A DNA stretch of 64,000 nt from Escherichia phage vB_EcoM_WFH. Position numbers and translations under genes: made by a program. Of this stretch, positions 51,402 through 55,226 are shown in pieces (within the stretch, counting starts at the first letter, position 1; each line of letters begins with the position of its first letter). The notes under the pieces are model-generated. The model was not told the DNA's origin, ran no database searches, and worked only from the letters and a program-made list of their open reading frames with translations. The stretch lies in sequence record NC_048194.1. One strand, 5' to 3'.

Positions 51402-51848
51402 TTAACGGTAATTCACTAGTTGCTGATCACCAGAGAAGGTGCAATGATAAACGAATTGTGCGTTATAAAGCAACTGAAAACTTTTCTTTGGTTCATTATT
51501 AGAACTCATTGATGTAAAGATTTCTGCACCAGAACGGTTTTCACCAATCAGATTGATAAAGCCGCCAGTTGAACGAGGTTGAACGAAAGTGAAACGTTGC
51601 ATCCACGGAGTCCGGTTGACACCTTTTCCGGTGAATCCTTGAATCTGAATATTCAGACCTTCTTGCTCATTCACACCGATGTAAGTGGTAATCTTCGCAC
51701 CAGTCGTTGCTGCGGTCTTACCGTCCATCGCTTCGCAATCGTAAACAGCGATTGAATCGGAAGTACGGATGGCGGCTTCAGTCGCTTCCATATACATGGT
51801 GCCGAGAATAGCAGTTGCGGCAAGCGCGATTCCAGTGATTCGTTTCAT
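51402..51848 (-). CDS. Secreted protein of unknown function
   Basis: N-terminal signal peptide MKRITGIALAATAILGTMYMEA; 148 aa. Confidence 0.5.
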   Translation of the reverse strand: MKRITGIALAATAILGTMYMEATEAAIRTSDSIAVYDCEAMDGKTAATTGAKITTYIGVNEQEGLNIQIQGFTGKGVNRTPWMQRFTFVQPRSTGGFINLIGENRSGAEIFTSMSSNNEPKKSFQLLYNAQFVYHCTFSGDQQLVNYR

Positions 51849-51913: not shown

Positions 51914-52909
51914 TTATTTATTAGCAATATAAGCAAATTTTTGATAGTTATTTGCTTTGATGAGTTTTTCGACTTCAACAAGGTCATGAGCGACGTCATC
52001 AAGCAAGATATTGCGCCAGGTCGCGAATCGACCGACACTAAACACGTTTAAATCCATAGTCAGCTGCAGGAGTAGGGCGTGTCGCAAGTCTTTCGGAATG
52101 TCGACAATCTTGCCATATTTCTGGTCGACCTTTTCAACTTCTTCAAGAGCAATGTCACTCCATGAAAGGCCAAAGGCCGTCAACACTTCGTCGACTTCTG
52201 CGCGCAGCTTCATGTCACGGTAACGAGTGATGCCGCCTGCGGCTTCAACTGCAGCTTCACTCACGCTGACCAAAGGAATTGTTTCAATGATAAGCGTGTC
52301 ACCAGTAATTGATGCGCGGTAAGTTCTGACGGAGTAGTCAGGGAAGTAAATTGTCTGATACAAATCACACTTACGTTTAATCTTAAAGCGGTAAACGCGA
52401 ATGTTTGCTTTATCAAATGAGAAATCAAGCTTTTGATCAATTCCAGCAAGCTTCATCATGACTGGCAGCGGCGACGTGTTGATGATTGGCGTCTCGCTAT
52501 AGCCGCAAAGAGTATCAACCGGAGTATTAAAGAATATGCGGTCACCCAGTTTGTCGACAAGCTGATCATAAAAGTCATCAGGCGCAATATAACGCGTTGC
52601 AGTCTTAAGCTTCATGATTGAACGGCTGCCAAATTGATTGGTGACCTTCATGGAATACATATTGGCAAGGTTGATTGGGCAATGGTCGTGATAGTAGTTG
52701 CCGCGAAAATACACAGCCTTGTCAACTGTCACGGCCTTAAAAGGGATTCCGGTAATACGGCTTACTTCTTCGCCGCGAAAGCGTAGCAGCGCCTTGTGCT
52801 GTTGCGCTCGTTCCCCTGCTTCGTACACAATAGAGTTCGGGAAGTGACACGCGGTGATAAGTCCTGCCAATCCGCCGCCGATAATCATTACAGGTTGTTT
52901 CATGTTCAT
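51914..52909 (-). CDS. FAD/NAD(P)-binding Rossmann-fold flavoprotein (UDP-galactopyranose-mutase-like or GidA/TrmFO-like, unresolved)
   Basis: N-terminal IIGGGLAGL with acidic residue about 20 aa later; C-terminal GRFATWRN resembles a mutase-type motif. Confidence 0.55.
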   Translation of the reverse strand: MNMKQPVMIIGGGLAGLITACHFPNSIVYEAGERAQQHKALLRFRGEEVSRITGIPFKAVTVDKAVYFRGNYYHDHCPINLANMYSMKVTNQFGSRSIMKLKTATRYIAPDDFYDQLVDKLGDRIFFNTPVDTLCGYSETPIINTSPLPVMMKLAGIDQKLDFSFDKANIRVYRFKIKRKCDLYQTIYFPDYSVRTYRASITGDTLIIETIPLVSVSEAAVEAAGGITRYRDMKLRAEVDEVLTAFGLSWSDIALEEVEKVDQKYGKIVDIPKDLRHALLLQLTMDLNVFSVGRFATWRNILLDDVAHDLVEVEKLIKANNYQKFAYIANK

Positions 52910-53042
52910 TTGTCCTTTGTGGGTGATATGAGAAGTATAATAGCTAAATTATTTTACAGCAACAAGTCATTTTATTTAGTACAGATGAAAAAAAGACCCA
53001 CAACAAGTGTGGGTCAATTACCGCTGCATAACCGTCCTAAGG

Positions 53043-53888
53043 TTATTCCGCTTGATCACCGTCTTCGGCATCTTCGTTGGGTTCAACATCGACAAACTCG
53101 ATGTGGCCCATCTCTTCCAGCTTGCTCAGGTAGGAGCGAACGGAAGCGCCAAACAGTTGATCTTTAACTTTTTCGCCCAGCTCATCGATAGACTGCGCCA
53201 CGCCAACTTCGCCTTCTTTGATCGCCGCCAGAACGCGTCCACGGGTGGAATGCTCTTGCGGCTGGCTCAGGCCATTGCCAGTGTAGATGAAGTGAGTAGC
53301 TTTTGCACGACGTTGACCGTTTGCCTTTTTAGCGGCCTTACGTTCTGCGATGGCTTTGCGACGTTCTTCAGCTTCTTTCTTACGCTGTTCTTTCTGTTGT
53401 TCTGCAGCTTCTTTCGCCGCAATCTTAGCAGCTTCACGCTCTGCCTTGCGTTTCGCTTTAGCTTCTTCTTTGGCCTTCTCTTTTTCGGCCTTCGCTGCAG
53501 CACGGGCTTGATCACGCTCTGCTTTCTTAGCAGCAGCTTGTTCAGCTTTCAGGCGCTTGGCTTCTTCTTTAGCCTTTGCCTTTTCGATTTCTTTTGCTGC
53601 TTTAGCGGCTTCACGCTCTGCTTTCTTAGCAGCAGCCTTTTCTGCACGCTCTTTAGCTTTCTTAGCTGCTTCTTCAGCACGCTTCTGAGCCTTCTCATCA
53701 GCAGCCTGCTTGCGTTTCAGGGCAGCTTCTTCACGCTTGGCTTGTTTTTCCTGCTCACGCTTCTGGCGTTTTTCTTCGGCTTCTTTCTTTTTAGCCAGAC
53801 GTTTTTCTTCAGCCACGCGACGGCGTTCTGCTGCAGCTGCTTGCTTTTCTTCTTTAGATAATACTTTGATTGCTTCGGCCATATTCAC
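53043..53888 (-). CDS. ER/K-rich single-alpha-helix protein with C-terminal winged-helix-like domain
   Basis: About 170 aa of Lys/Glu/Ala/Arg repeats then a globular C-terminus (RVLAAIKEGEVGVAQSIDELGEKV ... YLSKLEEMGHIEF). Confidence 0.6.
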   Translation of the reverse strand: MNMAEAIKVLSKEEKQAAAAERRRVAEEKRLAKKKEAEEKRQKREQEKQAKREEAALKRKQAADEKAQKRAEEAAKKAKERAEKAAAKKAEREAAKAAKEIEKAKAKEEAKRLKAEQAAAKKAERDQARAAAKAEKEKAKEEAKAKRKAEREAAKIAAKEAAEQQKEQRKKEAEERRKAIAERKAAKKANGQRRAKATHFIYTGNGLSQPQEHSTRGRVLAAIKEGEVGVAQSIDELGEKVKDQLFGASVRSYLSKLEEMGHIEFVDVEPNEDAEDGDQAE

Positions 53889-54041
53889 AGTCCTTAAATA
53901 AATTAGTTTATTTTATATTCCCCTTTTGGGATAACTTAATTATGCCTTCAGTCGCCGCCAGTAGCAACTAAAAACTCTGGCGGCAATGCCACTTTAATTA
54001 AACTGATTTTCAGTTTTATTTTTCGTAAATTTACGTCAACA

Positions 54042-55226
54042 TTAACGCGCTTTCAAATCACGGTACACGGTCAGATTCTTCTTAGCGCGGGTGATGGCTG
54101 TGTACATCATCTTGGCATACGGAACGCCGCGCAAGATTTCTTCTAGCACGCACACATTGTCCCACTCGCTGCCTTGCGATTTGTGCACCGTTATGACATA
54201 GCCATAGTCCATGCCTCCAACAGCGCGTTGAGCCTCTTTGCGCACTTCCTGATCAGTAGAGAAGGAAAGAGGATTTATCTTCACCTTTATATCTTTGCCA
54301 TCGGTAAGCGAGCGCAAATTGACATACATGATTTCATTAGACTCGTCTTCATCCCTTTCAAAGTCCGGTACTGGCTCATAACTAATAACAATCCCTTGCT
54401 CGCCATTACAGAATCCTGGACCGTGTTGATTGAATGTGCAAATAACTTTCTCGCCGATTCCTGGCATTGGCGTTATACGTCCGCTCACTTGGCGCAATAA
54501 TGAATTCCATTTATCTTTGGTGCTATTATAAGAGCAAATAATTTGATCATCTTCGCCCATGAATTTCTTCAGTGCGGTAACGCGCGGCGATTCAGCCAAC
54601 ACCTTTACGTCATCGTATTCACGCGGAGGAAGTCGGTTGCCCTGTCGCACGAAGAAGGAAGCGCGGATTATGTTTGACTCTTTCCCCTGCCGCATGATTT
54701 CGGTTAACAGTACGTCAACGGCATCTTCAGTGAAGTAGGCGGCGGCTTTTACCGGAGGGACTTGTCCAATGTCGCCTAATGCCAGGACAGGGATGCGGTG
54801 ATCAAGAAGGCGCTCTGTGTCCCACTCACCGACCATTGAAGCTTCATCAAGGACGACAAGGTGCGGCCTTTCATCAAGCGTTGACTTTCTTGCGAAGATT
54901 GGTTCATTGTCATCGTTAACGCCGCGCACGTTATAGATGAACTGGTGAAGGGTCTTAGCGCCACGACAACCTTTTTGCTTTAATCGGCTGGCGGCCTTTC
55001 CGGTCGGCGCAATATAAATGGCACCGTACTCACCGACACAACGGCGCACAATCTCACGCGCAATAGAGGTTTTACCTGTTCCTGCATAGCCAGCGATGAA
55101 AAACACGCGCTTCGTCGTTTTACCGTCCTGCAATCGCTTGTACCATGCAACGGCCTTTTCGATGGCATCAATCTGTTGCGCGTTGAACTGAATCACTGGC
55201 TCATTATTAAATTCTGGAATGTTCAT
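54042..55226 (-). CDS. dda: Dda / RecD-like SF1B DNA helicase
   Basis: Walker A GYAGTGKTS, Walker B VVLDEASMV, motif V/VI ITVHKSQGSEWDNV. Confidence 0.8.
   Translation of the reverse strand: MNIPEFNNEPVIQFNAQQIDAIEKAVAWYKRLQDGKTTKRVFFIAGYAGTGKTSIAREIVRRCVGEYGAIYIAPTGKAASRLKQKGCRGAKTLHQFIYNVRGVNDDNEPIFARKSTLDERPHLVVLDEASMVGEWDTERLLDHRIPVLALGDIGQVPPVKAAAYFTEDAVDVLLTEIMRQGKESNIIRASFFVRQGNRLPPREYDDVKVLAESPRVTALKKFMGEDDQIICSYNSTKDKWNSLLRQVSGRITPMPGIGEKVICTFNQHGPGFCNGEQGIVISYEPVPDFERDEDESNEIMYVNLRSLTDGKDIKVKINPLSFSTDQEVRKEAQRAVGGMDYGYVITVHKSQGSEWDNVCVLEEILRGVPYAKMMYTAITRAKKNLTVYRDLKAR

Follow-up and report, generated by a model that had tools for sequence, protein, structure and literature searches.

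A predicted charge-striped helix joined to a winged-helix-like domain in the replication module of a Wifcevirus

Several systems that organise replicating or segregating DNA use proteins in which a small DNA-binding domain carries an extended helical or basic arm, among them plasmid KfrA, phage phi29 p16.7 and linker histone H1. The protein considered here is encoded on the minus strand of a 64,000-nucleotide stretch of Escherichia phage vB_EcoM_WFH (NC_048194.1; the whole stretch is called the window). By analogy it may be akin to these systems in kind: it is predicted to join a winged-helix-like domain to a long, charge-striped helical arm that would organise DNA, specifically on the principle of a single alpha-helix DNA-binding domain (SAH-DBD). 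Its closest working precedent appears to be the KER region of CAF-1, again by analogy and not by membership; eukaryotic CAF-1 is the one case known in which a basic-striped single helix acts on DNA beside a winged helix. The KER region binds DNA non-specifically at nanomolar affinity and cooperates with the CAF-1 winged-helix domain; CAF-1 function depends on the length and phase of the KER helix, and a two-residue deletion abolishes it (PMC10335832). The single helix of myosin 7a shows no DNA binding (PMC10335832).

The large subunit of CAF-1 (Cac1 in yeast, CHAF1A in human) and the phage protein as modelled have in common a long Lys/Glu/Arg-rich, basic-striped helix of net positive charge, a winged helix and an acidic segment, which in CAF-1 is the ED region. 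On the phage side the parallel extends to the phase of the stripe relative to the winged helix, which is conserved, and to the helix having no insertions or deletions within the genus. However, unlike CAF-1, the phage protein is a stand-alone 31-kDa chain with another domain order and is not part of a histone chaperone. Its helix is also about twice as long as the KER (177 versus ~90 residues), is much richer in Ala (31%) and has a distinct acidic stripe. Searches for CAF-1 homology with phmmer, using the helix and the full-length protein against all PDB chains (a set assumed to include the KER crystal chain), found none at E<=10.

The open reading frame (ORF) itself is not new, and hundreds of genomes carry it. 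Its minus-strand frame has a match (E 2e-83) in PHROG 4765, a family listed as of "unknown function", and a literature search found no paper discussing the architecture of its protein. Despite 355 phage records, 293 of them from Pseudomonas phages, the gene is filed as "hypothetical", "TolA" or "putative structural protein". The product in the window has 279 residues, a mass of 31,154 Da (31.15 kDa) and an isoelectric point (pI) of 9.6. The gene and the parts of its product are as follows; AF2 stands for AlphaFold2, pLDDT for its per-residue confidence score (predicted local distance difference test) and dN/dS for the ratio of non-synonymous to synonymous substitution rates.

53043..53882, minus strand: coding sequence of the helix/winged-helix protein (279 residues plus stop), PHROG 4765, from the ORF list, the PHROG match, orthologous 840-nt coding sequences and dN/dS
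53325..53855, minus strand: predicted uninterrupted alpha-helix, residues 10-186, ~26.5 nm, net charge +25, in a hendecad register with a basic stripe and an opposite acidic stripe (AF2)
53295..53324, minus strand: basic arm A-N-G-Q-R-R-A-K-A-T, residues 187-196, which contains the RR motif and joins the helix to the first strand (alignment; arm pI 12)
53091..53294, minus strand: predicted winged-helix-like globular domain, residues 197-264 (strand, H1, strand, H2, H3, strand)
53046..53090, minus strand: acidic C-terminal tail, residues 265-279, with 8 Asp/Glu and no Lys/Arg (composition; low pLDDT)

Architecture of the protein

Models were made with AF2, as monomers, of the full-length protein and of its C-terminal 94 residues alone. 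In the full-length model, built on a 23-sequence alignment, residues 10-186 form one unbroken helix, with pLDDT rising from 74 to 98. Residues 10-185 are 96% Lys, Arg, Glu, Asp, Ala or Gln, include no Pro or Gly, and have a net charge of +24 to +25. The hydrophobic residues Leu, Ile, Val, Met and Phe make up only ~4-5% of the helix, as seven isolated residues. A canonical coiled coil is rejected, since neither these residues nor Ala are periodic at 3.5 or 3.67 residues. The original prediction had taken a run of about 170 Lys/Glu/Ala/Arg residues to be a long helix or coiled coil, and had named it an ER/K single alpha-helix. The single charged helix stands, in agreement with AF2. The coiled coil does not, there being no hydrophobic seam and no heptad signal, nor does the generic ER/K type, in view of the strict hendecad register and the segregation of basic and acidic faces. 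By composition and AF2, this 27-nm-class charged helix is probably a single alpha-helix, for which we infer a monomeric state.

When residues 6-190 are written in rows of 11, a single register is kept throughout. Lys or Arg occupies hendecad positions 0, 3, 4 and 7 in 10, 10, 12 and 12 of the ~17 rows, respectively (44 of 68 cells), with a total of two acidic residues at these positions, while most of the Glu and Asp are carried by positions 1, 2, 6 and 9. At 3.67 residues per turn the mean directions are 333 degrees for Lys/Arg versus 154 degrees for Glu/Asp, which places them on opposite faces; Ala has no preferred face. The spectral peak of Lys/Arg at ~3.7 residues has a z of 12 against shuffled sequences. 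Pairs of like charge are over-represented at i+7 and i+8 (z 3.4 and 3.0), and pairs of opposite charge at i+3 to i+6, most strongly at i+5 (z 3.1), as expected for segregated faces. The stripe is not a by-product of richness in Lys, Ala and Glu, because domain II of E. coli TolA, which is similar in composition, has no Lys/Arg stripe (z -0.6) and a net charge of just +7. As a separate observation, the seven hydrophobic residues of the helix (V23, L29, L55, I99, L111, I154 and I178) are not placed at random: five of them lie at hendecad positions 5-6, on the acidic side (mean direction 149 degrees, resultant 0.46).

The stripe is a property of the family. The Lys/Arg peak near 3.7 residues is the strongest peak in 21 of 25 members and has a shuffle p<0.01 in 20 of the 25; the members that bear it include Pseudomonas phage SN, Serratia phage Hera and representatives of 50%-identity clusters with widely diverged helices. 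To measure the phase of the stripe, residues were counted backwards with the second Arg of the RR motif as origin; this Arg is invariant and lies ahead of the first winged-helix strand. On this scale the phase clusters at 61 degrees for Lys/Arg (resultant 0.75, Rayleigh p ~7e-7) and at 250 degrees for Glu/Asp (resultant 0.88, p ~2e-8), both p values being optimistic since the 25 sequences are related. Beyond the charge pattern, the helices of the family share little sequence. The picture that emerges from these computations is of a charged helix predicted to present Lys and Arg on one face and Glu and Asp on the opposite one, in a phase relative to the winged helix that appears to be conserved across the family.

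The gene is under strong purifying selection. Between Wifceviruses, the helices show up to 19 synonymous versus 0-2 non-synonymous differences (dN/dS 0-0.06), with no insertions, deletions or change in length; for the minus-strand frame as a whole dN/dS is 0-0.1. Such values, together with the constant length, are unusual for a low-complexity "spacer" and indicate that the helix is constrained at the level of both residues and length.

Beyond the helix, residues 191-262 are of ordinary composition and the final 15-17 residues are acidic. In the full-length model the helix is followed by a compact domain (pLDDT 91-97) and then by a disordered tail. In the model of the C-terminal 94 residues alone, DSSP assigns strands at 12-15, 44-46 and 76-79 and helices at 28-37, 47-58 and 63-72 (numbered within the fragment; core pLDDT >90), and the same elements recur in the full-length model. 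R192 is invariant in the 23-sequence alignment, and R191 and T196 are nearly so. Also conserved are R249 and K254 on H3, and S212 and R214 at the N-terminus of H1. This subfamily and a distant one, described below, both conserve S-x-R at the beginning of H1, one Arg and one Lys of H3, and the wing-turn His. In most family members the tail has a net negative charge (-2 to -18).

The topology strand-H1-strand-H2-H3-strand, and fold matches that are mostly to winged-helix domains, bear out the earlier view that the domain downstream of the helix looks like a winged helix-turn-helix. The call is probably right at the level of topology, and its statistical support is modest. A Foldseek search against the PDB returned nothing significant (best E 0.46), and the matches in a viral structure library were confined to members of the same family. 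Pfam assigned no family to the domain or to its distant homologues. No meaningful match came from sequence searches of the PDB, whether with the domain profile, with the full-length protein or with the helix; a designed repeat protein was the only hit, and no single stretch of it was over threshold.

The TolA label and other known systems

Orthologues are labelled "TolA protein" in the GenBank records of FEC19, ECML-117, BcepF1, MTx and others, which would make the protein a TolA-like, envelope-spanning one. The source of the label is domain II of TolA, likewise a long helical region rich in Ala, Lys and Glu. In an uncorrected blastp search, the phage protein indeed matches domain II of E. coli TolA with an E of 1e-32 and 48% identity; however, the match vanishes when SEG and composition-based statistics are applied. 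The highest 19-residue Kyte-Doolittle mean is 0.61, inside the winged-helix domain, versus 2.45 at residue 14 in E. coli TolA, so that a hydrophobic anchor is lacking. There is no Pfam hit at E<=1 and no NCBIfam TolA model at E<=1, the predicted C-terminal domain is winged-helix-like and not TolA domain III, and the gene is without tolQR/pal context. Membership in TolA is rejected on these grounds, and with it the routine TolA-like membrane protein that the original prediction had named as the finding that would undo it: the anchor and the family model are missing and the similarity is compositional. The label is a low-complexity artefact, and an envelope-spanning role is hardly credible. Correcting the label takes a misleading envelope-protein annotation out of therapeutic phage genomes.

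There is also a likeness to classical ER/K single helices, such as the lever-arm extensions of myosins 6, 7a and 10: the phage helix too is charged, has almost no hydrophobic residues, lacks Pro and Gly, and is predicted as one long helix. However, classical single alpha-helices have charges all round and dense i/i+4 Glu-Lys pairs, whereas the phage helix has two charge faces, weak enrichment at i/i+3 and i/i+4, and a high content of Ala. As to the systems with a small DNA-binding domain and an arm, Pfam gives no match to KfrA_N or linker-histone domains, and histone H1 globular domains are among the Foldseek hits at the non-significant E values of 2.9 and 9.9. The phage protein is without a membrane anchor, unlike p16.7, and its extension is a charge-striped helix, in contrast to the heptad coiled coil or Pro-rich basic tail of KfrA, p16.7 and H1-type systems. 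By the tests run, it is not a member of the TolA, KfrA, linker-histone or CAF-1 families.

Possible functions

We tentatively favour, by analogy with CAF-1, a role as a non-specific DNA-binding architectural or spacer protein of the phage replication module. The DNA-organising or spacer factor put forward in the original prediction is a reasonable suggestion of this kind. The protein would be abundant, non-enzymatic and associated with nucleic acid. Its basic stripe would lie along double-stranded DNA without sequence preference, the 26.5-nm helix corresponding to ~78 bp of B-DNA. The winged helix, together with the RR arm and the conserved R214, R249 and K254, would make a second contact, in fixed geometry, to DNA or to a partner protein, and the acidic tail would shield the basic face or recruit partners. 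In this manner the protein could coat, space or bridge the phage DNA as it replicates, and a part of the protein could enter the capsid along with the DNA. A more far-reaching version, unlikely though not fanciful, would make it a phage "chromatin" protein: the first viral or prokaryotic SAH-DBD and the longest such helix known, covering ~80 bp, positioned by its winged helix and regulated by its acidic tail, which would coat replicating PB1-like genomes, be partly co-packaged with them, and have an origin independent of the eukaryotic KER/winged-helix pair of CAF-1.

Several points weigh against a DNA-binding architectural role. The winged-helix core is slightly acidic (pI 5.5), and many winged helices bind proteins. 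Opposite-charge pairs at i/i+3 and i/i+4 are weakly enriched in the helix (35 and 36, respectively, versus 29 expected; z 1.5 and 1.8), and self-association is conceivable for a helix whose faces complement each other. The acidity of the core and of the tail would suit a protein-protein adaptor or molecular ruler, in which the winged helix and tail dock on the Dda-like helicase, the flavoprotein-like product of PHROG 4828, ThyX or Pol III, and the rigid helix sets the distance with no direct DNA contact. The top fold matches include several protein-binding winged helices (RPA32C, ScpB, Scc1-C, ORC2 and PBP2), and acidic C-terminal tails are partner-binding elements in SSB-type proteins. The gene order beside PHROG 4828 and ThyX, kept even in distant relatives, might also be taken as a sign of functional coupling, but this is rejected: the whole module is collinear on a 24-kb metagenomic contig (below), and its common descent accounts for the synteny. 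A pure spacer, moreover, would leave unexplained both a continuous, phase-conserved basic stripe of net charge +25 and near-zero dN/dS along the whole helix, and we consider an adaptor of this kind unlikely. Self-association, in turn, would give an electrostatic scaffold, with the basic face of one helix paired with the acidic face of another to form bundles, sheets, filaments or condensates that organise the replication zone. This would make use of the exactly opposite faces, maintained over 185 residues, and of Lys/Arg at the a/d/e/h-type positions, which are the core of hendecad coiled coils; the abundance suggested by mass spectrometry, described next, would also suit it. However, a net charge of +25 works against homotypic packing unless a polyanion is present, a hydrophobic seam is lacking, and such a scaffold is very unlikely.

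The protein is translated. Liquid chromatography-tandem mass spectrometry (LC-MS/MS) of CsCl-gradient-purified virions of the Wifceviruses vB_Eco4M-7 and ECML-117 detected a 31.1-kDa "TolA protein" (PMC7048862), a mass with which the computed 31.15 kDa agrees. In vB_Eco4M-7 it is represented by 7 peptides with 25.8% coverage and a score of 1197.6, ranking 7 of 33 proteins, and the portal (1112), major capsid (936) and sheath (891) proteins score below it (PMC7048862). The detection is near-saturating, because no more than seven fully tryptic peptides of 7-35 residues are possible from the window protein. In ECML-117 the score is only 3.2, and a helicase, a glyoxalase and a reductase were also detected (PMC7048862). 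Also prominent in the same virion preparations are a glyoxalase-family protein (score 718) and two unknown proteins (31.2 and 20.7 kDa) from outside the numbered structural block (PMC7048862, Tables 1-2). Either several "metabolic" proteins are packaged in Wifceviruses, or abundant lysate proteins are carried over into the preparations.

Genuine packaging is thus possible. Presence in purified virions of two Wifceviruses, with a score in one above those of major structural proteins, would be consistent with an internal virion protein whose basic helix neutralises DNA in the head, or which leaves the head together with the genome and protects or organises it early in infection, or both; this would be compatible with an architectural role on replicating DNA. 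Annotation as "putative structural protein" in LBL3, LMA2, JG024, KPP12 and others points in the same direction, but the LBL3 label is derived from low-complexity similarity and not from proteomics, because the record notes a "putative cell wall associated hydrolase". The low score in ECML-117 and the co-detected enzymes suggest carry-over of abundant lysate proteins (PMC7048862). In addition, the gene has its place in the replication module, outside the late structural block, and is preceded by a sigma-70-like promoter, and the running text of the Pa193 paper gives LC-MS identification for structural-block ORFs only. As an account of the protein, packaging in the head is improbable.

The charge-stripe geometry, the strong constraint and the proteomics of virion preparations make the protein a good experimental target. 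If the helix binds DNA, the SAH-DBD of CAF-1 would no longer stand alone but would be one instance of a recurring way to read or space DNA by length. [quoted passage not shown] The protein may also help explain DNA organisation or protection in PB1-like phages.

Family, neighbourhood and control signals

The 4 kb around the gene are 99.9% identical to Shigella phage CWP003 and 95-98% identical to ~25 other Wifceviruses (among them FEC19, ECML-117, Mansfield, WFC and BASEL Bas98-100), a genus of E. coli and Shigella myoviruses related to the Pseudomonas PB1-like phages. The 355 phage records were obtained by tblastn with the C-terminal domain; the Pseudomonas records are mostly Pbunavirus, 25 are from Escherichia phages, and the others are from Serratia, Burkholderia, Xanthomonas, Pantoea, Aeromonas and further phages. 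Carriers include Pbunavirus, Wifcevirus, Myosmarvirus, Carpasinavirus, Tabernariusvirus and an Aeromonas phage. An exhaustive profile search with a hidden Markov model (HMM) over 1.84 billion cluster representatives found only 46 clusters. The suggestion that such a protein is unusual in a phage replication module does not hold for this lineage, in which it is a regular, syntenic gene, although it is rare overall. In a word-indexed protein search only truncated fragments of the family were found and no full-length proteins, which the exhaustive HMM search recovered; the word index seems to cover low-complexity proteins poorly, and this could hide similar families.

On the minus strand the gene is flanked by a Dda-like SF1B helicase (54042-55226) and a 331-residue PHROG 4828 protein (51914-52909). 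Further on, in the same direction, lie ThyX, a phosphatase, a short-chain dehydrogenase, a glyoxalase, and the epsilon and alpha subunits of DNA polymerase III. The upstream neighbour is always a Dda/RecD-like helicase, and the PHROG 4828 gene and thyX are downstream in most relatives examined; in Tabernariusvirus several small ORFs intervene before them. Close relatives have a Lys/Glu/Ala/Arg helix of 115-190 residues and a mostly acidic tail, and a few short ones (P0030-P0033) have Arg-rich helices of 40-60 residues. Many orthologues (seven cluster representatives, P0013, P0015, P0018, P0023, P0024, P0026 and P0028, and phage tabernarius, L009:3191-4330) have a His-rich N-terminus before the charged helix, such as MSHTHHHD, MSHGHHNHG or MHKHHNHDHN, which could be metal-binding or pH-sensing. 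The Wifcevirus protein is without such a segment.

A distant metagenomic subfamily has an unrelated N-terminal domain of ~60 residues in place of the helix. On a 24-kb metagenomic contig its gene is part of a collinear module: DUF932, the distant-subfamily gene, a PHROG 4828-like gene, ThyX, a PNKP-type phosphatase, a short-chain dehydrogenase (SDR), a glyoxalase, RNase T, Pol III alpha and an SNF2 helicase. Because this subfamily holds the same position in the module without the helix, the winged-helix domain is the ancestral core and the striped helix an accretion of the PB1-like branch. A tblastn search with a distant homologue against phage and plasmid collections found nothing. In the distant positional orthologues (L020:514-1872; L011, L013 and L014) the N-terminal consensus is IIRDQ..I..AS.ADLVETYNALTGKSIKKFE.RAIAE.RV, similar to PHROG 4730 in its first half. 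In two contigs (L013 and L014) the adjacent upstream gene carries the second half of that family; in L020 the upstream gene is DUF932. No known fold or family could be assigned to this N-terminal domain, and a SAP/Rho-N-like helix-extended-helix motif in it, which would have pointed to another DNA-binding module, is rejected (hhalign against the E. coli Rho N-terminus, probability 0.2%; nothing in a PDB profile search).

The 331-residue gene at 51914-52909 (minus strand) matches PHROG 4828 with an E of 3e-150 and has no Pfam or NCBIfam hit. In the phage Mansfield record its counterpart is annotated as UDP-galactopyranose-mutase-like by HHpred. It stands between the winged-helix gene and thyX in most phage relatives examined and also in the distant metagenomic ones. 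PHROG 4828, ThyX, the PNKP-type phosphatase, the SDR and the glyoxalase may together make up an uncharacterised module of nucleotide or DNA modification. Between the PHROG 4828 gene and thyX is an ORF of 148 residues (51402-51848, minus strand), which has no PHROG or Pfam match. Its signal-peptide-like N-terminus, MKRITGIALAATAILGTMYMEATEA, makes its product apparently a secreted one, odd inside a block of nucleotide metabolism.

The frame had been proposed to extend over 53043-53888. It does exist, but its start is almost certainly the ATG at 53882 and not the GTG at 53888, because the AAGGA of the ribosome-binding site is 8 nt upstream of the ATG and merely 2 nt from the GTG. In all curated relatives the orthologue is annotated as an 840-nt coding sequence. 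The signals around the gene are:

53891..53895, minus strand: ribosome-binding site AAGGA, 8 nt upstream of the ATG at 53882 (sequence)
53939..53967, minus strand: candidate sigma-70-like promoter TTGCTA-17-CATAAT, inside the 150-nt gap after the helicase gene (consensus scan)
52985..53015, minus strand: strong intrinsic terminator with an 8-bp stem, 5 GC pairs and a T run, directly after the stop codon (scan)

A ribosome-binding site is annotated at the same place in the phage Mansfield record, and a terminator at the same position in phages Mansfield, WFC and LBL3. Read by eye, the orthologues in Pseudomonas phage SN and Serratia phage Hera have comparable -35/-10 pairs in the same upstream position. 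From these signals, the gene looks like a monocistronic unit transcribed by host RNA polymerase.

On the plus strand, an ORF of 284 residues rich in Phe, Leu, Ser and Cys (53007-53861) nearly spans the gene, and is rejected as the mirror image of its codons. This ORF, and several of 40-80 residues in other frames, are by-products of GCN, AAR and GAR codons and could mislead gene callers. A tandem DNA repeat is likewise rejected as the origin of the low-complexity region, the sole repeat found being one of 15 nt in 2 copies.

Also on the minus strand, the promoter-like -35 hexamer sits between the arms of a perfect 8-bp inverted repeat, GCCGCCAG (53984-53977) and CTGGCGGC (53961-53954) (region 53954-53992). 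This repeat partly coincides with a small terminator-like hairpin (53992-53980 and a run of T) after the helicase gene. The two hairpins are mutually exclusive, and the arrangement could therefore be an operator or a read-through switch. In Serratia phage Hera, a 9-bp inverted repeat, TTTGGGGAA/TTCCCCAAA, lies just upstream of the -35 hexamer of the orthologue.

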